A DNA stretch of 64,000 nt from positions 212,811-276,810 of the IMG/VR virus record IMGVR_UViG_3300034126_000020; one strand, 5' to 3'. Below, piece by piece: positions 19,578 to 41,455 of this stretch; the stretch's first letter is position 1; each line of letters opens with the position of its first letter. A program made the translations under genes and the position numbers. The stretch is from a virus. Lineage: Duplodnaviria; Caudoviricetes. A model generated the notes under the pieces. That model searched no databases. It was not told the origin of the DNA and saw only the letters and a list, made by a program, of their open reading frames with translations.

Positions 19578-21077
19578 TTAGTTCACAAGTTTGAAATTGC
19601 CGAACGGGTTGGCCCAGATTCCAATGTCGTGCTCTGTTTCGATAATAGTTGCGTAACGGATCACCGAATCAGACTCACGCCAGGTCAGAGCCACCACTCG
19701 CTTGACTACATCCGCGAGCGCCGACAGCGCATTTCGACCAATGATGTCGGAACCCACGATGAGTCGGACTTTCGCCTTCGTCGTCGGGACCTCTTCCATC
19801 GCCCTCAGCTCGCGGGCGAAGCCAGTGTTGTAATTCACGTTCACGTCCAGGTGTTTCACCGCTGAGGTGATCTCCTTACGCAACTTGAACGTCACCACTG
19901 CCTTCTTTTCCACGGCTTCATATAGTAGGTCGGTCAAATCGGTAGCGATCACCGACTTGTCACCCTCCATGAACTGGTCAAGGATTACCGACATACATTC
20001 CAGGTTGTCCACGTTGTAGTAGGACAGCCCAGTGGGTGTAACGTGATGGATGACCGGGATCTTCTTTTCAGTCTGAAGACTCCAGTTCGACTTGTTACGC
20101 CTGAGCACGTCCAGACCGAAACGCATGATGTCTTCGGTGGTGTTGGCGTTCAGAATGTTGCGCAGCGCACCTACGAACAGATGCCCTACTTGTGAGGTGT
20201 CCATTTTGACGAAATGCTGACGCACCTTCTCCAAGACTTCAACGTCGTCTTTCAAATAAAGAACAGCGTTGCTTGAGTCGGATTGCGGCTTAGCGATGTC
20301 TTCGTCATCCCCATGCTGACCAGTCCAGTAAACGTGGCGACCGTCCTTTGAGACCCTGCGCTCCGTAGCGTCAGAACTGAAATACCACTTGGGTTGGTCA
20401 AACATGCGGTTGTACGTACCGGTTGCTTTCCAGTACCCTTCCGGCTGTTGCTCGAGCTTGTACGTGAGTTCGTAGCCATTGAGGCCCAGACTGTTGCCCT
20501 TACCGGCCCAACTGTCTGCCTTCTCATTCCCGGTGTGTCCGTTGTGCCCTTTGATCCACGCCAGGGTGACTTTGTTCTCTTTGTCGCGCAATTGGCCCAG
20601 CAGTGTGTCGACGGCTATCCAGTCGGCCTTGTTGGCCACCTCTTCGCCATCCTGCTTACGCCAGCCGGTTTGCTTCCATTTGTTCAGGTACTGGTTAACG
20701 CCTTTGACCACATACTGGGAATCCGAGTAGATGATCGTTTCGTTCAGCCCTTTGTCAAGTACGTATGACAGCGCCTCCTTTGCAGCAAGCAGCTCGGTGT
20801 GGTTGTTGCTGCCTGCTTTAGGCACCCCACCGAAGCTATCAATGTAGTTTAGGATGTTGACGGCTTTCTGCTCATCCTTCGTGTCGGAGTAGCCGACAGC
20901 CGTTGGTGTCGATCCAGGCACACCACTTCCACGGGTCTTGTCCGGTAACGCGTCTGCTGTGTACACGTAACCATGTAGACCCCACCCCCCAGCGCGTTCA
21001 CTGCTATAAAACCCACCGTCGGCGTACAATACCCCATTGTACCCGCCGGATGCCGGGCTTTCCTTAACATCCGTCAT
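19578..21077 (-). CDS. rnhA: Ribonuclease HI with C-terminal extension (phiKZ gp155-like)
   Basis: YADGG, GGWG, NNHTELLA, YSDSQYVVKG, W..GW, WIKGHNGHTGNEKADSWA: full RNase HI catalytic set. Confidence 0.92.
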   Translation of the reverse strand: MTDVKESPASGGYNGVLYADGGFYSSERAGGWGLHGYVYTADALPDKTRGSGVPGSTPTAVGYSDTKDEQKAVNILNYIDSFGGVPKAGSNNHTELLAAKEALSYVLDKGLNETIIYSDSQYVVKGVNQYLNKWKQTGWRKQDGEEVANKADWIAVDTLLGQLRDKENKVTLAWIKGHNGHTGNEKADSWAGKGNSLGLNGYELTYKLEQQPEGYWKATGTYNRMFDQPKWYFSSDATERRVSKDGRHVYWTGQHGDDEDIAKPQSDSSNAVLYLKDDVEVLEKVRQHFVKMDTSQVGHLFVGALRNILNANTTEDIMRFGLDVLRRNKSNWSLQTEKKIPVIHHVTPTGLSYYNVDNLECMSVILDQFMEGDKSVIATDLTDLLYEAVEKKAVVTFKLRKEITSAVKHLDVNVNYNTGFARELRAMEEVPTTKAKVRLIVGSDIIGRNALSALADVVKRVVALTWRESDSVIRYATIIETEHDIGIWANPFGNFKLVN

Positions 21078-28867: not shown

Positions 28868-31258
28868 ATGAGTACTGTCCTTCCACAATACCCTTTCGAT
28901 CCGACGGGTGTCGCGGCAACAAACAAGGTGACCGAGACCCAGTCGATTCGTTCGCGGGGTACGTTCGATCACTATTACATCATTCCGCGCCTCGGTCCGT
29001 TCTACGCCACAAGCGTAAAGCTGCGACTGTATCCGCAGGGTGCAAACGTCAACAACCCAGCGTTGGGTACTGACCTTCACGAAGGTGAGCACTACAACTT
29101 CGGGTATCACTTCGCTTACGCGTCTCATACCATTGGTTTGCCGGTCTACGGCGCCATTACGTTCTACGATCGCAATCTCGAAGGTCAGCTCCGCATGGAG
29201 TACCAGACCATCGGTGACGATTGGGTACTGGATGATCAGGCGTACAGTGAACTCCTGCTTAACGTGGCGTTTAACCCACGCATCGCAAACTGGGAACAGG
29301 TGGTTGAACTGCCTCGTGAATTCCCGGTGGTCAACCATGACTTCAGCATTGACGACTTTGTCGGCATGTCGGAAGTGGTCGATGAGCTGGCGGACATTGA
29401 GCGAGCATTGCTTCAACAAGGTGTCGGTGGCATCGCAGAACACATCGCCGACAAGTCCAACCCTCACGCTGTCACTAAAGCGCAGGTCGGACTGAGCCTG
29501 GTGGATAACTTCCCTACTGCTACTGTAGGTGAAGCGACCGCTGCGGTAGCCAATAACCGTTTTATGACGCCTCTGCGAACCAAGCAGTTGATCGACGCTG
29601 TCGCCACTGCCGCGCTCAATGCGCACATGGCTGACATGAACAACCCACACACCGTGACCAAAGCGCAAGTCGGTCTCGGTAGTGTGCAGAACTTTGCCTT
29701 GGCCACACAGGCTGAAGCCGAAGCCGGTGCCTCGAACGCCCGTTACATGACTCCCCTGCGGACTCGTGAAGCAATCGAAGCCATCGCAGGTGCAAAGATC
29801 GACGGTCACATTGCGGACAAGAACAACCCTCACGGCACTACCAAAGCGCAGGTAGGTTTGGGTAACGTCATCAACATCGGCATTGCAACCAACGCGGCTG
29901 CTCTGTCCGGTACCGATGACTCAGGTATCATCACCCCTCGTCTGTTGTCGTTGGTGTTGAGTGAAACGGTAGGGTCGGGTGTTACTGACCACATCAATAA
30001 CTTCAACAACCCACACAGCACGACCAAGTCCCAAGTCGGCTTGGGCAGCGTTGAGAACTTCGGTATTGCTACACCTGCCGAAGCTGCTGATGCGACTGCC
30101 AACAACAAGTACATGACGCCGCTGGCTGTTCGTCAAGCGATCAACGCCTTGGTGGGTGACAGTTCGAATGCTCACGTCAGTGACTTCAACAACCCGCACA
30201 AAGTGACGGCTGCTCAGGTTGGTACGTACACCGAGCAAGAGATTGACGCTCTGCTGCTGGACAAGTTGGACGTGACTGCCGCGGCAGCTAACGCCCTGAA
30301 GGTCTACGGCTTGACTCAAGCTCAGTTGGCTGCATGGGTAGGGACTCTGAAGGCAGGCGATACCATCCTGTTCGATGGCAAGACCTACATCGATGTCATG
30401 AACACCTTCTTGGCCAGTAAGGTTGCTGACACGTCGAAGTTTGACGGGAAGACCTACGCTGAAGTGAAGGCCGACATGGCCGGTCAGGTGGCGGGCAGCA
30501 AGATTCAGTACGCTGTCCCTGAAATGCCTCTGCTGATCGACGGTACCGGTAACGAAGTCCCTGCTCCGGTTCACTGGATCTTGTTGGGTAGCTTCAAAGC
30601 CCCAATCAATGGTCTGCATGCAGACCTGACGTTGATGCTGACTGGTGGCCGTAACGATGAATCCCTCAACGCAGACAAGCAACACACTGCGCTGTTGGAG
30701 ATCGGTGCGACCTACGACCAAGAAGGCGGTGTAGGTGACTTCACTCTGCATCCTCGTGGTGCGGCAGTCAAGCACTTGTCGGCTGGTGCGTACCCAATGA
30801 CGTTGGGCTTTGTGGTTACAGGTACTAACCTGAACTCGAAGATCGATGTCTACCTCAAAGGGGTGGGTCAGCGCAACCCGATCAACATCACTGAGCTGTC
30901 GGACAAGCTCTGGATTCCGGCTACGTTCCCATCGTGGGAAGATCTGGCTGACATCGTTACTGTGGAACCTACCGGGATTGTTTACCCGGCTGTCTTCACT
31001 GACGGTACAGCAGACATCGCGGCATTGCAGGCTTTCCAAGCCCGTCGTGATAACCCTCACGTTGTGACCAAAGCTCAAGTAGGGCTGGCATCCACGCCGA
31101 ACTACGCTGCGGCAACCAACGCCCAGGCGGTAACCGGCACTGCAACGAACCTGTTGATGACCCCTGCAACAACCACCGCCAAAGTCGATGATTCTATCGG
31201 CAAGATGTGCGATGAGTTGATCACGGTCATTGATGCGTCGATGCCGCTGTTCGCTTGA
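28868..31258 (+). CDS. Tail fibre protein (phiKZ gp146-like)
   Basis: YPFDPTG N-terminus; six H..D..NPH.(V/T)TKAQVGL-type repeats with a ~270-aa non-repeat insert before the last one; GGAG RBS. Confidence 0.8.
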   Translation: MSTVLPQYPFDPTGVAATNKVTETQSIRSRGTFDHYYIIPRLGPFYATSVKLRLYPQGANVNNPALGTDLHEGEHYNFGYHFAYASHTIGLPVYGAITFYDRNLEGQLRMEYQTIGDDWVLDDQAYSELLLNVAFNPRIANWEQVVELPREFPVVNHDFSIDDFVGMSEVVDELADIERALLQQGVGGIAEHIADKSNPHAVTKAQVGLSLVDNFPTATVGEATAAVANNRFMTPLRTKQLIDAVATAALNAHMADMNNPHTVTKAQVGLGSVQNFALATQAEAEAGASNARYMTPLRTREAIEAIAGAKIDGHIADKNNPHGTTKAQVGLGNVINIGIATNAAALSGTDDSGIITPRLLSLVLSETVGSGVTDHINNFNNPHSTTKSQVGLGSVENFGIATPAEAADATANNKYMTPLAVRQAINALVGDSSNAHVSDFNNPHKVTAAQVGTYTEQEIDALLLDKLDVTAAAANALKVYGLTQAQLAAWVGTLKAGDTILFDGKTYIDVMNTFLASKVADTSKFDGKTYAEVKADMAGQVAGSKIQYAVPEMPLLIDGTGNEVPAPVHWILLGSFKAPINGLHADLTLMLTGGRNDESLNADKQHTALLEIGATYDQEGGVGDFTLHPRGAAVKHLSAGAYPMTLGFVVTGTNLNSKIDVYLKGVGQRNPINITELSDKLWIPATFPSWEDLADIVTVEPTGIVYPAVFTDGTADIAALQAFQARRDNPHVVTKAQVGLASTPNYAAATNAQAVTGTATNLLMTPATTTAKVDDSIGKMCDELITVIDASMPLFA

Positions 31259-31328: not shown

Positions 31329-32774
31329 ATGAGTGTACCACCGATTATCCAGTACCCTCTTGACCTAGACGGTACGTCACTGACGAACAAGATTGTCGGT
31401 GAGCGACGGGAAATCAGTACAAACACGGCTCGCGCGTTTGTTCCCAAGGCAGGTCCTTTCTACACCAGTTCGTTTGTCATCATCAACGCAGACACCGGGG
31501 TTCCCTTGGTGCCGGTTGACGACTACGTGCTGGCCCAACCGTTTTCTCAGGCTTCCTTGCGAAGCGGTAAAGACGTGCAGTGCGCTGTGGTCCTTAAAGT
31601 GCAAGCCCCTATCACGGTGATCATGGATTACCAAGTGGTGGGTGGTGAGTACTCCTGGAACCTGAAGGCGCTGGCTGACTTGATCGAACAGGTCAACCTC
31701 GATGAACGCCCTATCAAATGGGGTTCCATCATCGGACGTCCTACGGCGTATCCGCCGGCTCCTCACATCCACGACATCGGCGATACATACGGCTGGGAAT
31801 ACGTGGTGTGGCAACTGGAGCGAATCACCAACGCGATCTTGGTCGGTGACGAAGCGTCTCACGATGAACTGCGTCAACAGATGCAATTCATTCGGGATCA
31901 ACTGCAAGCGAACATCGATGCAGTGGACCTGAAGATCGACAACCACCTGAACGATTTCAATAACCCTCACAACACCACGAAAGCTCAAGTGGGTCTGGGG
32001 TCTGTTGAGAACTATCCGGTGGCATCGAACGCTGAGGCTCTGGCGGGTGTCGTTGGTAACCGTTACATGACGCCTACGCTGGTGTCGATTCTGGCCAACC
32101 GTATCTCTCAGGAGATCACGGATGCTCACGAAGCCAAGAAGAACAACCCTCACGCCGTTACAAAGGCACAGGTTGGTCTGGGCAGCGTAGACAACTTCGC
32201 CACGGCTTCGCAAGCCCAGGCAGAAGCCGGTACAGCCCCTGATGTGTTCATGACACCTCAGCGCACGTACCAAGCGATCATGGTGTTCGCAGGCAACAAG
32301 ATCAACCAGCACGTTGCTGACGTCAATAACCCACACCAGACCACCAAGGCGCAAGTCGGTCTCGGTTTGGTTGACAACTTCCAGACCGCGTCGGTGGCTG
32401 AAGCTCAGCAAGGTATCCTGAACGATCGCTTCATGACACCTGCTCGTACCAAGGCGGCTATTGATGCCATGGTCGGCAACGTGATCAACCAGCACATCTC
32501 GAACTTCAACAATCCGCACAACACGACCAAAGCGCAAGTGGGGTTGGGGAACATCCCGAACAACATCACTCGTTCTCGTGGGTTGAACTCCGACGATTAC
32601 CTGCTGACCGCTGGCGGCATCTTCGATCACGTGAACTCTGCGGATCACGATGCTCGTTACGCACCCAAGAACACCCCGGGTGTCGACTGCTCTGTTCACT
32701 GGAACGGTTCGGCGGCCTACGTGTGGGGCGGCGGTGCTTGGCGTCAAGTGTGGCCACCGCTGTGGCAAGATTGA
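31329..32774 (+). CDS. Tail fibre protein (phiKZ gp145-like)
   Basis: YPLDLDG N-terminus, four NPH..TKAQVGL repeats, C-terminal WNG..YVW.GGAWRQVW. Confidence 0.8.
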   Translation: MSVPPIIQYPLDLDGTSLTNKIVGERREISTNTARAFVPKAGPFYTSSFVIINADTGVPLVPVDDYVLAQPFSQASLRSGKDVQCAVVLKVQAPITVIMDYQVVGGEYSWNLKALADLIEQVNLDERPIKWGSIIGRPTAYPPAPHIHDIGDTYGWEYVVWQLERITNAILVGDEASHDELRQQMQFIRDQLQANIDAVDLKIDNHLNDFNNPHNTTKAQVGLGSVENYPVASNAEALAGVVGNRYMTPTLVSILANRISQEITDAHEAKKNNPHAVTKAQVGLGSVDNFATASQAQAEAGTAPDVFMTPQRTYQAIMVFAGNKINQHVADVNNPHQTTKAQVGLGLVDNFQTASVAEAQQGILNDRFMTPARTKAAIDAMVGNVINQHISNFNNPHNTTKAQVGLGNIPNNITRSRGLNSDDYLLTAGGIFDHVNSADHDARYAPKNTPGVDCSVHWNGSAAYVWGGGAWRQVWPPLWQD

Positions 32775-32798: not shown

Positions 32799-33305
32799 AT
32801 GTTTCAACGGCTGGATAACCTGTTCGCTGAGATCAGTGAAGAACTGCTGGACCTTGACGTCCTGATGATGAGTCCTTTTGTGTACGAGCAGGGCTTGGTG
32901 AAGTTTATCAAGAACGGCGGTAGTCATGACGTATTCACTATTTCCGATTACCTTGAGATTGACGACAAGCCAGTCAAGGTAGAAGGCATGGAACGCCTCA
33001 ACGGAACCATGTGGAAAGTCTGTAAGCGGTTGGCAGATCACTTCGGCCATGAAGGCCCGGTGACCTGTCACCTGTTTATATCCCCTAAAGACGGGGTGAG
33101 TTTCCCGATGCACACTGACCTGGATGATGTGGTTATTCACATGGTCACAGGACAAAAGACTTTCGAGTCAACGGACGGGTCGATGGACCTTGTAGCCGGT
33201 GACTCCATTTACATCCCGAGAGGCACGAAGCATCGTGCCATCAACACTGACAGTTCCCTTATGCTGAGTTTTGGCTTGGAACTCTTCACGGAAGCCAAAC
33301 TGTGA
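32799..33305 (+). CDS. JmjC/cupin 2OG-Fe(II) hydroxylase
   Basis: FPMHTD.DDV..HMVTGQKTF...GDSIYIPRG..H: HxD...H triad in a RoxA/Cupin_4-like pattern; GAGGA RBS. Confidence 0.85.
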   Translation: MFQRLDNLFAEISEELLDLDVLMMSPFVYEQGLVKFIKNGGSHDVFTISDYLEIDDKPVKVEGMERLNGTMWKVCKRLADHFGHEGPVTCHLFISPKDGVSFPMHTDLDDVVIHMVTGQKTFESTDGSMDLVAGDSIYIPRGTKHRAINTDSSLMLSFGLELFTEAKL

Positions 33306-34339
33306 ATCAAAAGACCATTTACGTCAAGACCACCGGTACTTGCAACCTGAACTGTCAGCACTGTTTCACCAACGGGAAGAACGGGGATAAGACCCACTTC
33401 AACCCAGAGGCCACAGTGGCCTGGATCAAAGACTTTATGTCTCGGTATCCGGAAGACACCCACTACCACATCGAGTTCCATGGTGGGGAGCCTTTCCTCG
33501 TGCCCTTGGAGAAGATGCAGATCGTAGCGGATGCGTTCATCGAACAAGAGAACGTGTCCATGTGTGCCAACAGCAACTTGACCTTCAAGATGACTGATGC
33601 GCACATCGACTTCATCAAGCATTATTTTGGTGGTTACATCGGGACCAGTTGGGATCATTGGATTCGCTGGAGCAACGAGAAGCAGGTGAACCTGTGGAAG
33701 AGCAATCTTCGGTTGCTGAAGTCCCATGGCATTGACATTGGTCTCAAGGTGTCTGTCAGTCGTCCTCTGATTGAGACCACGCCTGATTGGTTCATTGATC
33801 AGATGGAAGCCATTGCGGTGGACGATGTGTCGCTTGAGCGTCTGACCCACGACGGCAGTGCTGAGGTCAACCTCGACATCTTCCCCAACAACGAGGCTCA
33901 GGATAACTGGTACCTCGCGCTTTATTTGCGTTACAAAGAAAGGAACCCGCGCGTAAAGATTCGCACCTTGGACATCATCGAGCAAAAGCTCAAGATGAAA
34001 ATGGTAAGAGTCGACACCAACTGCCGGAACTGTGAGCAGAACCTTGTGACGATGAACCCAGATGGGTCGTTGTCGGGTTGCCCTAACGCAGCCACCAAGC
34101 TTCACCATGCCAAGTTAGAGCAGGGCGTCGATGCGTTCCTCAATTCCGACAGTCGGATTGATGAGATCGTAAGCGAAGTGACGCGGAGTGATACGTGCAT
34201 TACGTGCGACGTGTACGATCTATGTGGGGGTGATTGCCATCGTCTCCCATGGCAGAAAGGTCGCTGTGGTGGTCTGAAAAACACACTGCGTTATTTGTCT
34301 GGTCGTGCTCAACAGTCCAACCTGATTATAAAGGTGTGA
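33302..34339 (+). CDS. Radical SAM enzyme with SPASM-type Cys-rich C-terminus (rSAM-1)
   Basis: CNLNCQHC, FHGGEP, C-terminal CRNC..GCP..CITC....CGGDC..C; GTGA overlap with the JmjC gene. Confidence 0.92.
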   Translation: MNQKTIYVKTTGTCNLNCQHCFTNGKNGDKTHFNPEATVAWIKDFMSRYPEDTHYHIEFHGGEPFLVPLEKMQIVADAFIEQENVSMCANSNLTFKMTDAHIDFIKHYFGGYIGTSWDHWIRWSNEKQVNLWKSNLRLLKSHGIDIGLKVSVSRPLIETTPDWFIDQMEAIAVDDVSLERLTHDGSAEVNLDIFPNNEAQDNWYLALYLRYKERNPRVKIRTLDIIEQKLKMKMVRVDTNCRNCEQNLVTMNPDGSLSGCPNAATKLHHAKLEQGVDAFLNSDSRIDEIVSEVTRSDTCITCDVYDLCGGDCHRLPWQKGRCGGLKNTLRYLSGRAQQSNLIIKV

Positions 34340-34340
34340 T

Positions 34341-34877
34341 ATGGCCGAAGTAATTACTCGGAACCGGATGGCCGTCAACGCCAACTCCATTCTGAAGAAC
34401 AACATGAACAGCGGAATCAGTTGGGGGACGAATAACTATCCTGCCAACTCCATTCCCGGCTGGTTCGCTGGTACGACTGCTGGGGTAGACTTCACTGCCA
34501 CTGTAGCGCACTTCCAAGCCGGTAAACCCAGTGCGTCTCAGACAGTAGCTGTGCTGCGTAACATCGCAAACGTCTTCGGTGGCGTGCGGACTACGCGGAT
34601 CGTCATCTACTACAACAACAACGGAAACCTGCAAGTCCAGTACGATGGAACTGCGGTGGCCAACACTATATACGGTGTAGGTGATTTCGCCTCCCAAGCC
34701 AACCTCGGTGGCCTTGGCGTCAACACTCCTTTGTCCTTGAACATGTTCAACGCTGCCTGTCTGGCGCTTTGGAACGTGTACGTGGCCAACTGCCGTAACC
34801 AAGTCCTTACCCTGACCAACACCGTTTGCCACACGAGCTGCCACGTAAGTTGCCACTCGTCCCGCGGTCGTCGGTAA
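34341..34877 (+). CDS. Asn/Gly-rich protein ending in (CHxS)3-RGRR; candidate substrate of the modification cluster
   Basis: 178 aa with very few acidic residues; C-terminus CHTSCHVSCHSSRGRR; starts 1 nt after the rSAM-1 stop. Confidence 0.75.
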   Translation: MAEVITRNRMAVNANSILKNNMNSGISWGTNNYPANSIPGWFAGTTAGVDFTATVAHFQAGKPSASQTVAVLRNIANVFGGVRTTRIVIYYNNNGNLQVQYDGTAVANTIYGVGDFASQANLGGLGVNTPLSLNMFNAACLALWNVYVANCRNQVLTLTNTVCHTSCHVSCHSSRGRR

Positions 34878-34894
34878 TCATCGAGGAGAACATC

Positions 34895-35704
34895 GTGGAC
34901 AAGACTACCGAAGTGGAAGTCAAGAAAGAGCCTAACAAGCTGCCAGTACCGCGCTTTGCACCCATTGAAGGTGAGCTGGTTGTCATTGAGACCACCGTGC
35001 CTGTCCCCATCATGGTCATGCGTCGTAAGTTCACCGAGAACATCAAGTTCATCGTGGACTACGACAACAGCCGTCACAAAGGCAAGGTGTTCATCACGTA
35101 CATCACCAACATGGGTGTTGAATGTGAACTGCGGTTCGGGTCCGTTGAGTCTAAACTGGAACTGGTGAAAGAGTATCTTCACGTCACCTCCATGGTGGAC
35201 CTGCCGCAATTGGAAGACGTCGTGATCAATCTGTTGCTGGCAGCGACGGGCAAGCCTTACCACTTGGACTTCAATCCTCTGGACTTCATTCTGGAGAACG
35301 AAGAGATCCTTCAGGTATGGATGCGGAACTGCTGCATGGTCCCGACGTACGCCCTGCACAGTTACCCGCCCACTGAGGACCAGGTCAAGAACTACGAAGA
35401 GATCCCAGGTGATGACCTGAGCGGTATCAACTTCGTGCACTTGGCCAGCCACATCTTGTTCCCGATGTTGATTTCTGACGTCCCTGAAGAGCACTGGTGC
35501 TGGAACAAGACGTTCTTCAAGGAGTACTGCTTCGGTGGACACAACCTGTTCTACTACACGCAGTCGGAGAACAACCCGTTCTTCATGGCGTTGCTGGTGA
35601 TCAGTGAACCGGAAGCAGTGGGTGATCTGGGGATTGCAGCGGCTACCATCCTGCAAGAAAACCACACTTACCTAAAGGGCCTCGAACATGTACCATCTGC
35701 TTAA
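34895..35704 (+). CDS. Hypothetical protein of the rSAM cluster
   Basis: 269 aa from GTG 34895 (GAGGAG RBS); overlaps the next gene. Confidence 0.7.
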   Translation: MDKTTEVEVKKEPNKLPVPRFAPIEGELVVIETTVPVPIMVMRRKFTENIKFIVDYDNSRHKGKVFITYITNMGVECELRFGSVESKLELVKEYLHVTSMVDLPQLEDVVINLLLAATGKPYHLDFNPLDFILENEEILQVWMRNCCMVPTYALHSYPPTEDQVKNYEEIPGDDLSGINFVHLASHILFPMLISDVPEEHWCWNKTFFKEYCFGGHNLFYYTQSENNPFFMALLVISEPEAVGDLGIAAATILQENHTYLKGLEHVPSA

Positions 35705-36743
35705 CCAGACGTACGTCGATTCTGAAACACGGATTGACCGTACAGCAAATACGATCACCATCTCGCCACAGGTGGGGTTCGAATACATCCCTCAGCCTAA
35801 CGAGAAGGTCGGGACTCACTTGGGTTACGGGACCAGTCTGGATGCTTTCACGCCAGAACAGTTCCATGACCTGATGGTGGCGGCTAATGAGCTGAACGAG
35901 AAGGTTGTCATCTACAGCGATGGCCGGACCTACGCTCGCATGTACGCCATGTTGGTCAAAGCGGTGTTCCCGAACATCGACTTCGACAACTTCTGCTGGT
36001 TCATGCTCTGCAAGAAAGCCACGTTCAACTCGATCATCGTGGCCATGGGCGAACCCCGGGTTGACGTGCTGTCGAGCGTGGTGATCAACCGGGCTGTCTG
36101 CAAAGAACTGTTCGAAGCTGAAGAGCCTCTTCAAGAGACCTTCAATGAACTGGTCGCTGACGACGCTGATGCACTGTCGCTGGAATGGCACATTGCTCGG
36201 TTGCGGACTGAAGGCATTTCGGGAAAGATCCCAAAGGCAACCAAGACCATCTTGCGCCGCATCGCTCTGTCGAACGCGCATGATGCCATGGATGTCTGGG
36301 CCCGTCACCTGACCCGTCCTCAGTTCTGGGACATGGCCGGTGCTGACATGGACACTCTGCTCAATGCACCGTCCGTGTTTGAAGGGTGCTTGGGTCTGCC
36401 TCACTTGGCCTCCCAACAGTTGCTGCGTCCTGGCCTGTACGATTTCCGTCCGAACGACACGTGGATCAAAGGCATGCTGCGTGAAGCAGTGGACCTGATG
36501 CACCGTCTTGAAGATGGTTCGTCGGCTGAACGTGCCGCTGAGATCCTGCGTCTGCTGGAAGATGACCGCAACATGGTCGAGGCAGCTAACTGTCTGGACC
36601 GGGTCAACCGGATGTTCAATGGCGAGATGCGTATTGCCCTGGCCATGCGTGACACCGGCAAGTACGACGAGAACCTCATTCGTCACATCCTGAACATGGA
36701 GCTGTCTGTTCTCAAGGCAGCCTTGGAAGGGGCGACCTGGTAA
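35688..36743 (+). CDS. Hypothetical protein of the rSAM cluster
   Basis: 351 aa; TAATG coupling to rSAM-2. Confidence 0.75.
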   Translation: MYHLLNQTYVDSETRIDRTANTITISPQVGFEYIPQPNEKVGTHLGYGTSLDAFTPEQFHDLMVAANELNEKVVIYSDGRTYARMYAMLVKAVFPNIDFDNFCWFMLCKKATFNSIIVAMGEPRVDVLSSVVINRAVCKELFEAEEPLQETFNELVADDADALSLEWHIARLRTEGISGKIPKATKTILRRIALSNAHDAMDVWARHLTRPQFWDMAGADMDTLLNAPSVFEGCLGLPHLASQQLLRPGLYDFRPNDTWIKGMLREAVDLMHRLEDGSSAERAAEILRLLEDDRNMVEAANCLDRVNRMFNGEMRIALAMRDTGKYDENLIRHILNMELSVLKAALEGATW

Positions 36744-37738
36744 TGGAACTGATCCCTGTAGTGAACATACTCAGGGATAAGAAGGGTCGCCGTAAGGAGG
36801 CCCATCTGATCCTGTTCGAATGGTGCAACCTGCGGTGTTCCTTCTGCCATCAGGACCACGATTCCAAAGTGGGCTTCGATGCGGTTGACATGATCCGTAA
36901 AGCACAAACGCTGATCGACGAAGTGGACAGTGAATCGGAGATCGTGATCAACATCACCGGTGGTGAACTGTTCATGGACGATGTACCGGACTGGATGTTC
37001 GGTTACTACCTGACGATTGGCAGAATGCTGCTCGAGAACTTCCCTCATGCCAAATTGGTCTGGGGGACGAACTTGATCTTCAAGGATGTCTGGCGAGTGG
37101 CTCGTTTGATCCACATGCTGAGACCGTATGGTAAAGTCGTTCTGGCTACGTCGTATGATCCTGCTGGGCGGTTCAATGAGATGCAGCGTATTCGCTTCTT
37201 CGAAGTGCTTGAAGAAGTTGCTCCTCTGGTTGAAACGGTCAACGTGGTGATCACCAAGCAGAACATCGAGTCCTTCCTTGCGGGCCGGGAAGGTCGGGAA
37301 GTGGCTTGGCTCTGTGAGCAGTTCGACGTGTACTTCGATCACTACATCCCTAGCCAGATGTACGAGTACATTCAGCCGGATGAAGAGTTGATCAGCGCCT
37401 TGTACCTGCACCTGAACAAGAAGTACCCCAACTCCTACCCGATCAAGGACTGGAAGGCTAACGTGATCAATGAGACCACGTGCCGTTCTACCAAGATCAT
37501 CAACAAGGACGGCGTTGTCAGTACTTGTTGGTCTGAGGCAGGCAAGGGTGCGATCTTGGATGAGGCTGAAGGCTTGCGGGCTAAGGACGAAGCAGAGATT
37601 GCGTTCGTGGAACATTACGAGTGCTTCTCCTGTGAGTACTACACCCGGTGTGGCTTGCGGTGCTTCCTCCATGACACTGTCTTGGGTGAGAAGTCCAAGG
37701 TGTGCAGCATCAAGACCATGTTCGACGAAATCTTGTGA
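36743..37738 (+). CDS. Radical SAM enzyme (rSAM-2)
   Basis: CNLRCSFC, ITGGE, C-terminal CFSC....CGLRC...C. Confidence 0.88.
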   Translation: MELIPVVNILRDKKGRRKEAHLILFEWCNLRCSFCHQDHDSKVGFDAVDMIRKAQTLIDEVDSESEIVINITGGELFMDDVPDWMFGYYLTIGRMLLENFPHAKLVWGTNLIFKDVWRVARLIHMLRPYGKVVLATSYDPAGRFNEMQRIRFFEVLEEVAPLVETVNVVITKQNIESFLAGREGREVAWLCEQFDVYFDHYIPSQMYEYIQPDEELISALYLHLNKKYPNSYPIKDWKANVINETTCRSTKIINKDGVVSTCWSEAGKGAILDEAEGLRAKDEAEIAFVEHYECFSCEYYTRCGLRCFLHDTVLGEKSKVCSIKTMFDEIL

Positions 37739-37782: not shown

Positions 37783-38805
37783 TTACAGGCCGGCCTTCTT
37801 GATAAGGTTCAGCAGCAGTTCAGAGTGCAGCGCTTGAGCGAGGCCGATTGGGACGCCCTTCATACCAAACTGGTTGCAGTATTCGAAGATGCCCCACTTC
37901 TCATCTTCGGTGATAAACAGATCCACTGACGACAATGGACCAATCACCGTCAGTACCAGTTCACGCAGGCCTTCAAGATCAGCGCCGCCCAGTACGTCAT
38001 TGATAGCGCAGATGTCGTTACCCTTGGCGCTGTTGGTTTCAGAGCCCGTGGCTTGAGCCAGACCGGTGTTGTCCTTGTCACGGATGTTGCGACGTTGGCA
38101 GTACGCGATCTCACCGCCTTGACCTGTCAGGAGACGGTATTCTAACTTGATGCCGGGTACATAGTCCTGAATGCAGAAGCCCTGAGACTGGATGGCTGTC
38201 AGACCTTCGTTCTCGAACTTCTCAGCAGAGGTTGCATACTTGAACGACGGGTCGTACTTATGCAGCTCAGGCAAGACGTCAGCCAGTTGAGTACGGCCTG
38301 TCTTTAGGCCATCAAGAACGTCCACCACAGCAGTCAATGGAATCTTGTCCGGGTCAATGAGGAACTGACCAATACCACGAGCCCCGTCCAGCGGCTTGAC
38401 CACGACGCGGTTGTCCGGGTTCACCAATTGACTGAAGCCGTGCAGTTGTGGGTTGTGATGCATCGTCAGCGGATAGAAGTTCTTGAACAGGTGTTCGTTT
38501 TCTTCATCGCTGTTCAGTTCCACCGCAGCCAAGAGACGCAGTTGTTGCTCGACCTTGTTGTACCGCTTGATGGTGTGCATCCGACGGGGAGGGAGCAGGT
38601 TCTGCATGTCCATGCCGTCGATCTTCAAGGAGCCGTCATTGACGACCACGTCGAAGTTGAAGCGGGCATGTCCACCGTTGATGCTCATCTGTGGATCACG
38701 GTGGAAGTAGACCTCGTAGTTACCGTTATCCAGTGACATCCCTTGACTCAGTACATCCCAATTGTTCATGGCATGGGAGGCCACTACGACATTGATACGC
38801 TTCAT
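37783..38805 (-). CDS. ATP-grasp ligase (RimK-like)
   Basis: VVVKPLDGARGIG, CIQDYVP...EYRLL, SSVDLF......IFEYCNQFG; AGGAG RBS. Confidence 0.8.
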   Translation of the reverse strand: MKRINVVVASHAMNNWDVLSQGMSLDNGNYEVYFHRDPQMSINGGHARFNFDVVVNDGSLKIDGMDMQNLLPPRRMHTIKRYNKVEQQLRLLAAVELNSDEENEHLFKNFYPLTMHHNPQLHGFSQLVNPDNRVVVKPLDGARGIGQFLIDPDKIPLTAVVDVLDGLKTGRTQLADVLPELHKYDPSFKYATSAEKFENEGLTAIQSQGFCIQDYVPGIKLEYRLLTGQGGEIAYCQRRNIRDKDNTGLAQATGSETNSAKGNDICAINDVLGGADLEGLRELVLTVIGPLSSVDLFITEDEKWGIFEYCNQFGMKGVPIGLAQALHSELLLNLIKKAGL

Positions 38806-39066: not shown

Positions 39067-39285
39067 ATGACCGATTCCATTCTGCCAATACGTCGCCGTA
39101 AACCACTTGTGCCTCGTTTTCCACGTACGCTCGGTGATAGCGATTGGCTGTTGAAGAAGTTAAGAGAAGCGAACAGTCCAGAGAACGAACAGTTCCGTCG
39201 TGACTACCTCGGTCAATGGACCGTACAGCCTGCTGATAAGGAAAAGCCCGATGGACCTGATCGTCAAACCGACCGTCAACTGTAA
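39067..39285 (+). CDS. Small hypothetical protein (72 aa)
   Basis: Starts 4 nt after the previous stop and overlaps the rSAM-3 start. Confidence 0.5.
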   Translation: MTDSILPIRRRKPLVPRFPRTLGDSDWLLKKLREANSPENEQFRRDYLGQWTVQPADKEKPDGPDRQTDRQL

Positions 39286-40336
39286 CTTCAAGTGCACGTT
39301 CTGCTCGAGCACTCATCTCTCTGAAGACGCCACCGACATTGTTGAGTTGGCCCAGATCGAGGAGTTCATCCAGCGGTTCCACACGCACACGATCATCATC
39401 AACGGCGGTGATCCTCTGATGATGCCTCCAGAGTACTACTGGAAGCTGATCGAGATCCTCGACAAGCATGGCAGTGAGGCCAGCATTAGTTTCACCTCTA
39501 ACCTGTGGCCGTTCTACAAGAAGCCAGAGTTATGGGAGGAGTTGCTCAAACACCCCCGTCTGGGCGTCACAACGTCCTTCCAGTACGGCGACAAGCGTTT
39601 GAAGGGCGATGGTACAGTCTTCAGCGAAGAGGACTTCTGGAACGTCTCAGACATGTTCCTGGAGCGCATCGGTTACCGCCCGGGTTTCATTGCGGTGATC
39701 GACAAGGACAATGAACACACAGTCCTTGATACGGTGCGTCTGGCTCAGAAGATGGACGTCGAAGCCAAGATCAACCATGTGGTCGCTTCGGGCCCCGTGG
39801 TTGTGAAGAAAGGGATTGCCATGGGCAGTATCGACAACTTCTTTACGCAGGCTGACATCTACGGCCACTACATCGAGATCTACAACGCCGGCTTGATGGA
39901 GTGGGAATACAACACCAAGCAGATGGCGAAGAAGCTCAAGCATCAGCACACGACCTGTCCATTGGCGCGTGAGTGTGATTCGGGCATCCGTACACTGCAA
40001 CCGGGTGGTGGTTACTTCTCCTGTGGTTCTTTTGCAGATGACGGGGCGTACCCGATCGACTTCAAAACCGAGATGGACGGTGGGATGGTCTATCCATTGC
40101 AGAACCAGCCGGAACTGCAAAGCATGAAAGACTCGTGCTACATCTGTCCGATGTTCAACATCTGTAATGGGTGTCGGAAGACGATCTCTGACACCAAGCG
40201 CATGGGGCTGACTGAACAGCACTGTCGCAAGATGAAGAGTCAAGCTGCCCAGATCATCGAAATCAATGGCATGTCCGCTCACCTAGAGCCGACGCCGTAC
40301 GAAGATGAATCCCTTCCCTTGATTGCACGAGGTTGA
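39251..40336 (+). CDS. Radical SAM enzyme with SPASM-type C-terminus (rSAM-3)
   Basis: From ATG 39251 (TAAGGA RBS): CNFKCTFC, INGGDP, CPLAREC..YFSCG..CYICPMFNICNGC..HC. Confidence 0.92.
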   Translation: MDLIVKPTVNCNFKCTFCSSTHLSEDATDIVELAQIEEFIQRFHTHTIIINGGDPLMMPPEYYWKLIEILDKHGSEASISFTSNLWPFYKKPELWEELLKHPRLGVTTSFQYGDKRLKGDGTVFSEEDFWNVSDMFLERIGYRPGFIAVIDKDNEHTVLDTVRLAQKMDVEAKINHVVASGPVVVKKGIAMGSIDNFFTQADIYGHYIEIYNAGLMEWEYNTKQMAKKLKHQHTTCPLARECDSGIRTLQPGGGYFSCGSFADDGAYPIDFKTEMDGGMVYPLQNQPELQSMKDSCYICPMFNICNGCRKTISDTKRMGLTEQHCRKMKSQAAQIIEINGMSAHLEPTPYEDESLPLIARG

Positions 40337-40337
40337 C

Positions 40338-40553
40338 ATGTCCTTTCCTATCTTGGATCAAATGGCGTTCTTTCCACCCGGTCATGAAGTCAAGCTTCAG
40401 ATCCCTGAGGTCTTGAAGAAGATCGTCCTCAAGCGCTGCGTTGAAAGCGTTGATGACTTCCTCGACGTGGTCAGTGATTCCCGGGGTCTTAAACTGAGCC
40501 CTTATCAACGAGATTTCTACAAATGCCTAAGTCAAGAATCAACGTCTCGCTGA
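40338..40553 (+). CDS. Small hypothetical protein (71 aa)
   Basis: GAGG RBS, fills the gap between rSAM-3 and rSAM-4. Confidence 0.5.
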   Translation: MSFPILDQMAFFPPGHEVKLQIPEVLKKIVLKRCVESVDDFLDVVSDSRGLKLSPYQRDFYKCLSQESTSR

Positions 40554-41455
40554 ACCCGTGGTACTACTGCAACTTCCGGTGTGACTTCTGTTACCTCACC
40601 GAGCAACAGTTGAGCGACAAGCAGTTCATCCCGCTGGACGTCTTTGAACAACGCATCGACGAACTGCTGGAGCACTTCGAGATCGGTCACATCGACATCT
40701 ACGGTGGGGAAGTCTTCCTGTTGCCTCAGCAGTACCTGATGGACATCAAAGACATCCTGCACATGCGGGGCATTGATGACATCGTGGTCGTCACCAACCT
40801 GTCGCATGTACCGGACATCGCTCATGACCCAGCGTTCGACATCTCGGTGTCGTATGACTTCGGGGCTCGTGAGAAGCACGACCAGGTGTTGCAGAACATC
40901 TTCCAACTCAGCAACAAGTTCAACATCCTGACGTTGGCCGGCCGTACGTTCTTGGATCTGGTGACCCCAGACGAATACGTGCAGACCATGAACGGGTTCC
41001 CACATCTGAAAGGCTGTGAGATCAAACCGTACAGTTCTAACCAAGCCAACGATCAGGACGTGTCGTTTAAGGAATTCGAAGAGTTCGTCTGGGCTGTCAT
41101 CAAACACCCCGAACGTAACTTCTATTTCGAGAACGAGACTCAGGTCAAGGAAGCGGTAGACGGTAGCCGCAATGCTTTCTCTGATGACCACATCTACATC
41201 ACTCCAACCGGCGATTACGCCGTACTGGAGTTTGACAAGAATGACCGCGAGTTCTTCCTGACAGTAGACGGCATCGAAGGATACCTCGACTGGTGCGGGA
41301 AAGAGTATGAGCGAGTAGCGGACAATCCGTTCTGTGCATCGTGTACGTTCCACGGCGGGTGCCTCTCTGAGCACTTGCGGGAAGTCACAACCCTTGAGAA
41401 CTCCTGTAACGGGTTCCGGGGTCTCTTGTTAAAGTGGGTGGAGCATGGAACTTAA
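40523..41455 (+). CDS. Radical SAM enzyme (rSAM-4)
   Basis: CNFRCDFC, IYGGE, VTNL, C-terminal CASC....GCLSEH....C. Confidence 0.88.
   Translation: MPKSRINVSLNPWYYCNFRCDFCYLTEQQLSDKQFIPLDVFEQRIDELLEHFEIGHIDIYGGEVFLLPQQYLMDIKDILHMRGIDDIVVVTNLSHVPDIAHDPAFDISVSYDFGAREKHDQVLQNIFQLSNKFNILTLAGRTFLDLVTPDEYVQTMNGFPHLKGCEIKPYSSNQANDQDVSFKEFEEFVWAVIKHPERNFYFENETQVKEAVDGSRNAFSDDHIYITPTGDYAVLEFDKNDREFFLTVDGIEGYLDWCGKEYERVADNPFCASCTFHGGCLSEHLREVTTLENSCNGFRGLLLKWVEHGT

Follow-up and report, generated by a model that had tools for sequence, protein, structure and literature searches.

A nearly invariant Cys-His tag at the C-terminus of phage tail-fiber-module proteins as a candidate substrate of SPASM radical SAM enzymes

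In the triceptides, radical S-adenosylmethionine (rSAM) enzymes cross-link an aromatic residue to a C-beta atom, with a mass change of -2 Da per unit. SCIFF precursors possess six Cys residues in about 45 amino acids, and the acceptor motif of the ranthipeptides is Cys-X3-Asp/Glu. The anaerobic sulfatase-maturating enzyme (anSME) acts on the substrate motif C/S-x-P/A-x-R, while QhpC, the gamma subunit of quinohemoprotein amine dehydrogenase, receives several rSAM-made Cys cross-links from QhpD and stays in a larger assembly. At the tip of the bacteriophage T4 protein gp37, layers of HxH motifs bind iron. For the motifs HAA, HNR, and HTK, the formation of His-C2 to C-beta links by HaaB, YhhB, and HtkB has been established (PMC11499958). 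Here we analyzed the last 64 kb (hereafter the window) of a complete 276,810-bp phage genome with terminal repeats (Caudoviricetes; IMG/VR record IMGVR_UViG_3300034126_000020, positions 212,811 to 276,810), in which the gene for a 178-amino-acid protein ending in Cys-His repeats directly follows that of an rSAM enzyme, rSAM1. On balance, and with modest confidence, we favor the view that this protein end is a portable C-terminal tag on a fiber-module virion protein and is modified by leaderless SPASM maturases.

The open reading frame (ORF) at positions 34341-34877 of the plus strand encodes the 178-amino-acid protein with the C-terminus ...NTVCHTSCHVSCHSSRGRR-stop, whose final letters are NTV-CHTS-CHVS-CHSS-RGRR-stop. 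A first-pass annotation, made by a model from the letters of the window, had pointed to the end CHTS-CHVS-CHSS-RGRR and to three 12-mers starting with TGCCAC at 34827-34862; the ORF, its translation and its DNA bear out both. A word-indexed search recovered 82 clusters of homologs (90% identity; 174-193 amino acids), and when 1.84 billion representatives were searched exhaustively with a profile, 699 clusters (50% identity) were recovered at E ≤ 0.001, 92 of which score below 1e-30. Since these include full-length homologs, the ORF is a real gene. It is divided as follows.

34341..34877 including the stop codon, plus strand: CH-tag protein gene, 178 amino acids (ORF, translation, full-length homologs)
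34341..34826, plus strand: folded body, residues 1-162, alpha/beta, varying between phages (AlphaFold2, alignment)
34827..34874, plus strand: C-terminal tag, residues 163-178, CHTS CHVS CHSS RGRR (conservation); the stop codon follows at 34875-34877

The pattern TGYCAY-N6-TGYCAY-N6-TGYCAY occurs once in the window and in none of 100 dinucleotide-preserving shuffles of it. The match stays single across the whole 276,810-bp genome, and no further tag-bearing gene was found in this phage with this degenerate DNA pattern.

The tail is by far the most constant part of the protein. When 54 members are aligned, eleven positions are invariant, and eight of these are located in the tail (C163, H164, C167, H168, C171, R175, R177, and R178); the tail stays while the identity of the bodies drops to about 30% or below; the blocks conserved in the body are NSGISWGTN.YP, R86, and YDGTA. 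The tail terminates 209 of the 224 family members that we fetched, and the consensus of 203 canonical tails is [V/I]-C-H-x-[S/N]-C-H-x-[S/N]-C-H-x-[S/A/N]-R-G-R-R-COOH. Variant tails possess two or four units, a Tyr in place of the third His (rarely), or a middle unit that lacks the Cys and keeps H-x-N, and these natural variants could act as a mutational map. One variant tag with four units has a Gly-rich end instead of RGRR, and another is internal, with a poly-Pro linker and then a second short end, CHSSGRSRR, behind it (variants listed from L037:8105-8878 (minus strand), P0143, P0190, P0127, P0202, P0163, P0175, P0169, P0173, and P0214).

Cys and His are classic soft-metal ligands, both are invariant in the tag, and neither single cross-link chemistry explains this double invariance. 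The tag might accordingly be an unmodified metal site, with Zn, Fe, or Cu held by the three Cys-His pairs; three chains, for instance, would contribute 3 Cys and 3 His per layer, in the manner of the HxH layers of T4 gp37. Such a site would tie an oligomer together or fasten the protein to a fiber, while the neighboring rSAM enzymes and oxygenases would act on other substrates, e.g., fiber proteins or a small molecule. We rate this explanation as rather unlikely. It gives no ligand role to the conserved small polar residue in the fourth place of each unit, and the findings on protein structure, on gene order, and on a second body family described below bear on it as well.

DNA encoding the tail with its stop codon was detected on at least 119 IMG/VR contigs, where the ORFs ending in the tail pattern span 125 to 365 amino acids, and the tag is also present in cultured phages of Pseudomonas, Ralstonia, Burkholderia, Agrobacterium, and Sinorhizobium. 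When representatives of the 258-, 127-, and 192-amino-acid classes were compared by tblastn with cultured phages, no match was found, in a search whose low-complexity filter also trims the tag. Scans of the 178-amino-acid protein against Pfam and NCBIfam returned no family, ten representative tag-bearing ORFs contained no Pfam domain, and the C-terminus of the 178-amino-acid protein weakly matches phrog_35144 (function unknown). The tag is the hallmark of a large family for which there is no Pfam or NCBIfam model; indeed, apart from the generic rSAM and cupin domains, every component of the system lacks a curated family.

AlphaFold2 models the body as a globular alpha/beta domain of four helices and a sheet, with a predicted local distance difference test score (pLDDT) of 90.2 and a predicted template modeling score of 0.83. 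The last strand stops at residue 163, and model confidence is low in the tail, with mean pLDDT values of 68 and 53 for its blocks; the tail is predicted to be a floppy C-terminal appendage. A tag that is modeled as disordered, and not as a part of the fold, speaks against a metal site. The first-pass annotation had characterized the body as rich in Asn, Gly, and Thr, nearly free of acidic residues, and similar to fiber or beta-rich virion proteins. The compositional part of this description holds, with 24 Asn, 16 Gly, 16 Thr, 3 Asp, and 1 Glu in the 178-amino-acid protein (isoelectric point 9.5), whereas the fiber-like, beta-rich part is at odds with the globular model. Relatives of the body were found neither in the PDB with Foldseek (best E 0.3) nor among 48,161 chains with VIA-align, where the best Z score, 4.7, belongs to a designed protein; TssK and a baseplate chain of phage Milano were considered as relatives and dismissed, their VIA-align Z scores of about 3 not being meaningful. 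A search of the ESM Atlas with the body gave template modeling scores below 0.35, and a PDB profile search with it came back empty. Among the AlphaFold database clusters and BFVD, the body resembles only uncharacterized phage and metagenome proteins, including a 296-amino-acid protein of Agrobacterium phage Atu_ph07.

The tag gene is embedded in a conserved cassette. Across loci, the recurrent gene order is cupin, rSAM1, tag protein, X1, (X2), rSAM2, rSAM3, and rSAM4, with tail-fiber genes before the cupin gene, and in the window these neighbors are arranged as follows.

28868-31258 and 31329-32774, plus strand: two tail-fiber genes before the cassette (PHROG tail and virion-structural families, E down to 1e-138)
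32799..33305, plus strand: small cupin/JmjC-like oxygenase (Pfam JmjC_2 6.5e-9, Cupin_2 9.2e-8)
33302..34339, plus strand: rSAM1, SPASM radical SAM enzyme, candidate maturase (Cys motifs, TIGR04085, synteny)
34895..35704, plus strand: X1, 269 amino acids from a GTG codon after a GAGGAG site (phrog_20767; directly 3' of the tag gene)
35688..36743, plus strand: X2, found at some of the loci (gene-order position)
36743..37738, plus strand: rSAM2, SPASM-type radical SAM enzyme (Radical_SAM, phrog_1802; conserved cassette position)
39200..40336, plus strand: rSAM3 (Radical_SAM 2.3e-13; weak DynA and anSME-like matches; conserved position)
40523..41455, plus strand: rSAM4 (Radical_SAM 4.1e-8; conserved position)

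As had been proposed, the tag gene lies directly after rSAM1 and two genes after the JmjC/cupin gene: it starts 1 base beyond the stop of rSAM1 (34339 to 34341), and the cupin gene in turn overlaps the start of rSAM1 by 4 bases. For the synteny counts we used IMG/VR tag proteins of at least 160 amino acids with enough flank. Among these, rSAM1 immediately precedes the tag gene at 57 of 67 loci and lies no more than 2.5 kb away at 64 of 67; X1 immediately follows the tag gene in 56 of 70, and some rSAM gene is present in 87 of 91 loci. Homologs lacking rSAM neighbors, the observation that the first-pass annotation had set against its own reading, are thus exceptions only, and that reading is not refuted by them. 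The cassette order is kept in the most distant sequence homologs and in the cultured phages pPa_SNUABM_DT01, RSF1, and Atu_ph07; orthologs of rSAM1 are present as well in RSL2, FLC6, FLC8, SURPRISE13, RsoM3USA, and Phosso.

A metal site leaves it unexplained that a SPASM maturase abuts the tag gene in more than 85% of the loci, in phages and in bacteria; yet a single short tag does not call for as many enzymes as the cassette encodes, a surplus that such a site, with enzymes serving other substrates, would accommodate. The place of the tag gene between rSAM1 and X1 is typical of accessory proteins, too, and Cys-rich tails are able to hold clusters. The tag protein could then be an accessory of the enzymes, whose Cys/His tail carries or donates an Fe-S cluster or a metal, or which scaffolds rSAM enzymes that mature something else. 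We regard this as extremely improbable; we know of no cluster motif with only three Cys spaced i, i+4, i+8.

Of the other cassette genes, the cupin precedes rSAM1 in 46 of the 61 loci with enough flank and also in a Bdellovibrionota locus. The window cupin matches JmjC_2 (Cupin_4), a family with members known to hydroxylate Arg or His in proteins. X1 was modeled by AlphaFold2 with a pLDDT of 88; fold relatives of it were not found, and an ESM Atlas feature search was blank. X2 had no match in Pfam, NCBIfam, or PHROG. Between rSAM2 and rSAM3 the window contains an ATP-grasp-like gene (37783-38805, minus strand), which we consider an insertion outside the conserved cassette because it is missing at the same place in pPa_SNUABM_DT01, where there is just a 180-nucleotide ORF (L001:12563-12742). 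Small DUF7936 proteins (start M..TYTW.V.S) recur in distant phages downstream of 2-oxoglutarate (2OG) oxygenases of the cassette (L002:19067-19459 and 19714-20094; L072:1963-2352); those near the L002 cassette were rejected as further substrates, as they have no CH tail.

The tag is not tied to one type of body. IMG/VR contains a second body family of about 127 amino acids with the motif QLRTFDKT, which carries the identical tag and is arranged as tandem pairs (L005, L030, L038, L048, L072, L081, L082, and others). After removal of the tails, the profiles of the 178- and the ~127-amino-acid families were aligned by hhalign with a probability of 0.8%, i.e., they have no detectable similarity. 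The tandem pairs begin at the stop codon of a fiber-type ORF of 700-2000 amino acids that ends ...EVEVKV/I, and four unknown ORFs stand between the pair and a cupin-rSAM1-rSAM3-rSAM4 block, with the enzymes 4-8 kb off. An rSAM1 ortholog was found in four of five records of this small-body class, all of them fragments (E about 1e-146). The occurrence of identical 16 residues on bodies without detectable similarity argues for a tail that is a module of its own and not the private metal site of one fold, and its conduct (invariant, floppy, on dissimilar bodies) is that of a portable enzyme target. Neither of two rivals accounts well for these data: a metal site leaves the identity of the tag, up to R-G-R-R-COOH, on dissimilar bodies unexplained, and for an enzyme accessory one would not expect fast-diverging, even unrelated bodies and tandem pairs placed right after fiber genes.

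One tag shared by bodies of no detectable similarity also recalls cargo proteins that share a targeting peptide. The tag could serve solely as an assembly or docking signal, its basic R-G-R-R-COOH end and Cys/His stripe plugging into a conserved socket on a fiber, a baseplate, or a chaperone (perhaps X1), so that variable receptor-binding bodies would be delivered to the particle with an enzymatically unchanged tag. X1 fits such a role, being linked no less tightly than rSAM1 and having a fold without enzyme-like matches, whereas a pure signal needs no translationally coupled SPASM enzyme in nearly every genome. We judge docking as the sole function to be very unlikely.

The same combination of genes occurs in bacterial chromosomes. 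In 185,579 species genomes, the tag pattern was detected at 47 loci, of which about 39 are genuine ORF ends and roughly 28 belong to Bdellovibrionota; eight of the 47 matches are due to chance, being no ORF ends or, in L158, a CHCHCH low-complexity stretch. The Bdellovibrionota loci (L147/L175, L149/L174, L170, and about 25 more among L127-L173) include some on contigs of 1.3-2.8 Mb and have housekeeping genes in the flanks, and they hold rSAM1, X1, rSAM2-4, and the JmjC cupin. Their vicinity encodes either a fiber-type protein with a Peptidase_S74 (endosialidase-chaperone) domain or a 2355-amino-acid RCC1/Big_2 surface protein. No curated families were found for the bacterial tag proteins or for X1. 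The Bdellovibrionota cassette may be linked to the phage-like prey-recognition fibers of these predators. With the 699 clusters, the IMG/VR contigs, the cultured phages, and now the Bdellovibrionota, the tag system is widespread and not confined to one phage.

Large fiber-type ORFs are located upstream of the cassette in all eight diverse loci that we inspected, and four of these eight fibers have a common C-terminal domain, phrog_22593/6427/19602 (L082:5686-7782, L048:7585-13698, L002:1351-8454, and L124:7553-9376, the last being gp176 of Atu_ph07). This shared domain could be the partner of the tag proteins, and, occurring in several distant loci, could form the socket that a docking signal requires; against this stands that the domain is not among the listed matches of the fibers in the window. 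The latter repeat the motif NNPH..TKAQVGLG..N many times and have their N-terminal 250 residues in common with phrog_2163/13857, and the second of them (31329-32774) has a Trp-rich end, ...GGGAWRQVWPPLWQD. Adjacency to fiber genes and a place in the virion would also suit a metal site.

That the tag protein is part of the virion, as the first-pass annotation had supposed, is supported by published proteomics of the Atu_ph07 homolog. The tag protein of this phage (L124:12001-12891; L035:2521-3411) has a calculated mass of 31.89 kDa, and we equate it with gp170 because of this mass and of the gene order, gp176 and gp177 matching the upstream ORFs by size. In purified Atu_ph07 particles, gp170 (31.89 kDa) was identified by electrospray ionization tandem mass spectrometry with 8 unique peptides and 35% coverage (PMC6102473, Table S5). 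It was spread over gel slices 1-9 with its maximum in slice 1, at the top, while proteins of 29-34 kDa peak in slices 7-8 (PMC6102473). The products gp169 (X1), gp171 (rSAM1), and gp172 (cupin) are absent from the list of Atu_ph07 virion proteins identified by mass spectrometry. A virion-borne homolog whose enzymes were not detected in the particle argues against an enzyme accessory, and the non-detection of X1 in Atu_ph07 virions argues against X1 as a docking socket. The Atu_ph07 tag protein has only three Cys residues, all of them in the tag, and the gel loading buffer, as described, contained no reductant; the tag is therefore the likely cause of the appearance of a 32-kDa protein at the top of the gel, be it through disulfides or through enzymatic links. 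A metal site would be compatible with this behavior as well, since free thiols could form disulfides after loss of the metal.

The enzyme encoded next to the tag has the features of a SPASM maturase. Across 28 orthologs, the invariant Cys residues of rSAM1 comprise the CxxxCxxC motif (residues 14-21; C14, C18, C21) and the seven-Cys SPASM set (C244, C260, C299-x2-C302-x5-C308-x3-C312, C322), and with both Cys motifs and a TIGR04085 score of 29.2 against a cut-off of 27 it qualifies as a SPASM protein. Its nearest curated families are all maturases of peptides or proteins (PapB, YhhB, AmcB, DarE, DynA, anSME, FxsB, CteB, and ChlB), and all of its best curated matches are far under the respective NCBIfam family cut-offs. 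Among the solved structures, anSME alone aligns over the full length and from the same start (11-318 vs. 12-333). Compared to rSAM1, CteB and 8vpo are longer by about 100 residues at the N-terminus, CteB being matched over the rSAM core only, and the ChlB structure is matched by the rSAM1 profile (E 8e-8) over the first 100 residues only. Having neither an N-terminal extension nor a leader-binding (RRE) domain, rSAM1 is built like the leaderless enzymes that directly recognize a short motif, which fits a tag on varied bodies. Since rSAM1 lacks the RRE domain and the same tag is found on bodies without detectable similarity, the enzymes most likely read the tag itself.

These data can be brought together in the following model. 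A virion-associated protein of the tail-fiber module would consist of a variable folded body and a flexible, nearly invariant 16-residue C-terminal tag, which would serve the surrounding enzymes as a portable recognition and substrate element. The translationally coupled rSAM1 would act on it, probably together with the JmjC-like cupin, X1, and the other rSAM enzymes, reading the tag directly as anSME reads a short motif in a whole protein. Radical-made cross-links would be expected at the three C-H-x-[S/N] units. As the first choice of chemistry we would place links from His-C2 to the C-beta of the residue two positions on, i.e., cyclophanes on H-x-[S/N/A] as in triceptides, and as the second choice thioethers of the Cys sulfur; hydroxylation of His or Arg by the cupin might be added. 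An aromatic role of His in the tag fits the rare His-to-Tyr variants at the third unit. The invariance of both Cys and His might mean that several rSAM enzymes carry out separate steps, or that some of the links join two proteins. The matured protein would then be built into the particle, and the enzymes would be left behind.

Several points weigh against this model. A modified tag peptide has been seen nowhere. Virion presence is known from one phage, Atu_ph07, and its gel was unreduced, so that disulfides between tag Cys residues, and hence free, unmodified thiols, could explain the high-mass species. The tag protein and its maturase score under all curated cut-offs, so that, judged by sequence, the chemistry is not transferable by homology. 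Triceptide chemistry leaves the invariance of Cys unexplained, and thioether chemistry that of His. Finally, four to six rSAM enzymes plus oxygenases seem to exceed the needs of a 16-residue tag, and some may act on other substrates such as the fibers. The proposal in the first-pass annotation that the tail is a core peptide for rSAM enzymes consequently fares well with respect to synteny and to the invariant, floppy tail on dissimilar bodies, and less well with respect to family membership; that the tag is the substrate, which enzyme acts on it, and the whole of the chemistry are what we infer.

In a further-reaching version of the model, which strikes us as quite unlikely, the rSAM machinery and the tag forge Cys/His-derived bonds between proteins and thereby staple interchangeable receptor-binding bodies to fibers or lock oligomers. 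If true, this would amount to an enzymatic, chainmail-like hardening of host recognition common to large phages and to predatory Bdellovibrionota with phage-like fibers, and it would explain why a 31.9-kDa protein is found mainly in the top slice of boiled Atu_ph07 virions.

A published description of the tag was not found in the literature that we searched, from which subscription journals were outside the scope. The genome papers on DT01, FLC6, SURPRISE13, and 332-Vera merely list rSAM, cupin, and oxygenase genes as unusual, and a comparative review of jumbo phages makes no mention of radical SAM. Literature searches on phage SPASM rSAM enzymes and tail fibers, on phage cross-links of the type seen in peptides that are made by the ribosome and modified after translation (RiPPs), and on Bdellovibrio rSAM enzymes and fibers returned nothing relevant. 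If the tag is an rSAM substrate, it would represent, to our knowledge, the first radical SAM maturation of a virion protein, and the system would be RiPP-like with a "core peptide" that is a portable tag on folded proteins without detectable mutual similarity. The chemistry of the tag, if present, could reveal new radical reactions of Cys and His. It would have a bearing on the stabilization or exchange of fibers and adhesins, and a short enzyme-addressable tag may be of use in protein engineering.

How does the tag system compare with those described? With the His-Xaa-Ser system the window protein shares His-x-Ser triplets and the presence of several rSAM enzymes in one cassette. His-Xaa-Ser, SCIFF, and ranthipeptide precursors had been named in the first-pass annotation as established rSAM substrates, and our data speak against membership of the tag protein in these families: the NCBIfam scans of the 178-amino-acid, bacterial, and small-class tag proteins gave no match to HxsA (TIGR03979), and the maturase scores under every curated cut-off. 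In particular, rSAM1 reaches 27.3 bits against HxsB (cut-off 370), rSAM2 and rSAM3 reach 20.6 and 27.1 bits against HxsC (cut-off 267.9), and HxsD was not found. Unlike in the Hxs system, the tag unit has four residues including a Cys, and the third place of the His unit is S, N, or A across the family.

Ranthipeptides, SCIFF peptides, and sactipeptides (PapB, CteB) resemble the tag system in having a Cys-rich C-terminal core beside a SPASM maturase; PapB is the top NCBIfam match of rSAM1, yet with 48.8 bits against a cut-off of 340, and CteB is among its top PDB matches. In contrast to these systems, the tag has no Asp/Glu acceptor and three Cys only, and the protein, at 178 amino acids, is no 45-residue SCIFF precursor. 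Like rSAM1, anSME is a leaderless SPASM rSAM enzyme; it targets a short motif within an intact protein, and the third tag unit, with Cys and Arg at i and i+4, is reminiscent of its motif. The +2 position of this unit is, however, S, G, C, N, T, D, or A and mostly not P/A. Although anSME is the best NCBIfam match of the bacterial rSAM1 ortholog, the TIGR03942 cut-off of 349 is far above both the 71 bits of this Bdellovibrionota protein and the 37.8 bits of the window rSAM1. The tag differs further in its three units with an invariant His and in a putative substrate other than a sulfatase. The idea that the third Cys is converted to formylglycine was set aside as pure speculation, since only the C...R spacing fits.

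The triceptides (HaaB, YhhB, HtkB, ChlB) show the same arrangement as the tag protein, namely repeated aromatic-X-X units beside an RRE-less SPASM rSAM enzyme, and the aromatic-X-X motif is present in 203 of 203 canonical tails as H-x-[S/N], H-x-[S/N], and H-x-[S/A/N]. The scores of rSAM1 against cyclophane synthases place it outside these families (YhhB 48.4 vs. 445, AmcB 44.4 vs. 425, FxsB 37.1 vs. 370 bits). Unlike in triceptides, every His has an invariant Cys in front of it, a folded, probably virion-borne protein of 125-365 amino acids takes the place of a short leader-core peptide as the "precursor", four to six rSAM enzymes, a cupin, and 2OG oxygenases accompany it, and the hosts are phages and Bdellovibrionota.

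QhpC and QhpD resemble the proposed tag system in that the modified protein is kept in an assembly and is not a released peptide, and QhpD is among the weak matches. In contrast to the tag protein, to which it has no sequence relation, QhpC carries Cys to Asp/Glu links and a quinone cofactor; there is no hint of a cofactor here. The HxH sites of T4 gp37 are similar to the tag as short His repeats in a protein of the tail-fiber module that could form metal layers in a trimer. The tag, unlike these sites, is terminal and modeled as disordered, includes Cys, has an R-G-R-R end, is carried by globular bodies, and always travels with rSAM genes, none of which gp37 requires. The tag also reads C-x3-C-H twice (window 34827-34856), a spacing that occurs in variant heme c attachment sites, probably by coincidence; we rejected a heme c site, as the tag protein starts without a hydrophobic signal sequence, lacks an export signal, and is probably a particle component put together in the cytoplasm.

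Taken as a whole, the system resembles the rSAM/SPASM maturation of Cys/His-rich C-terminal cores and falls outside the Hxs, SCIFF/ranthipeptide, triceptide-maturase, and anSME families. It differs from all of these in that the putative substrate is a folded, probably virion-borne protein, that one tag is shared by dissimilar bodies, that four to six rSAM enzymes are combined with oxygenases, and that it is found in phages and predatory bacteria.

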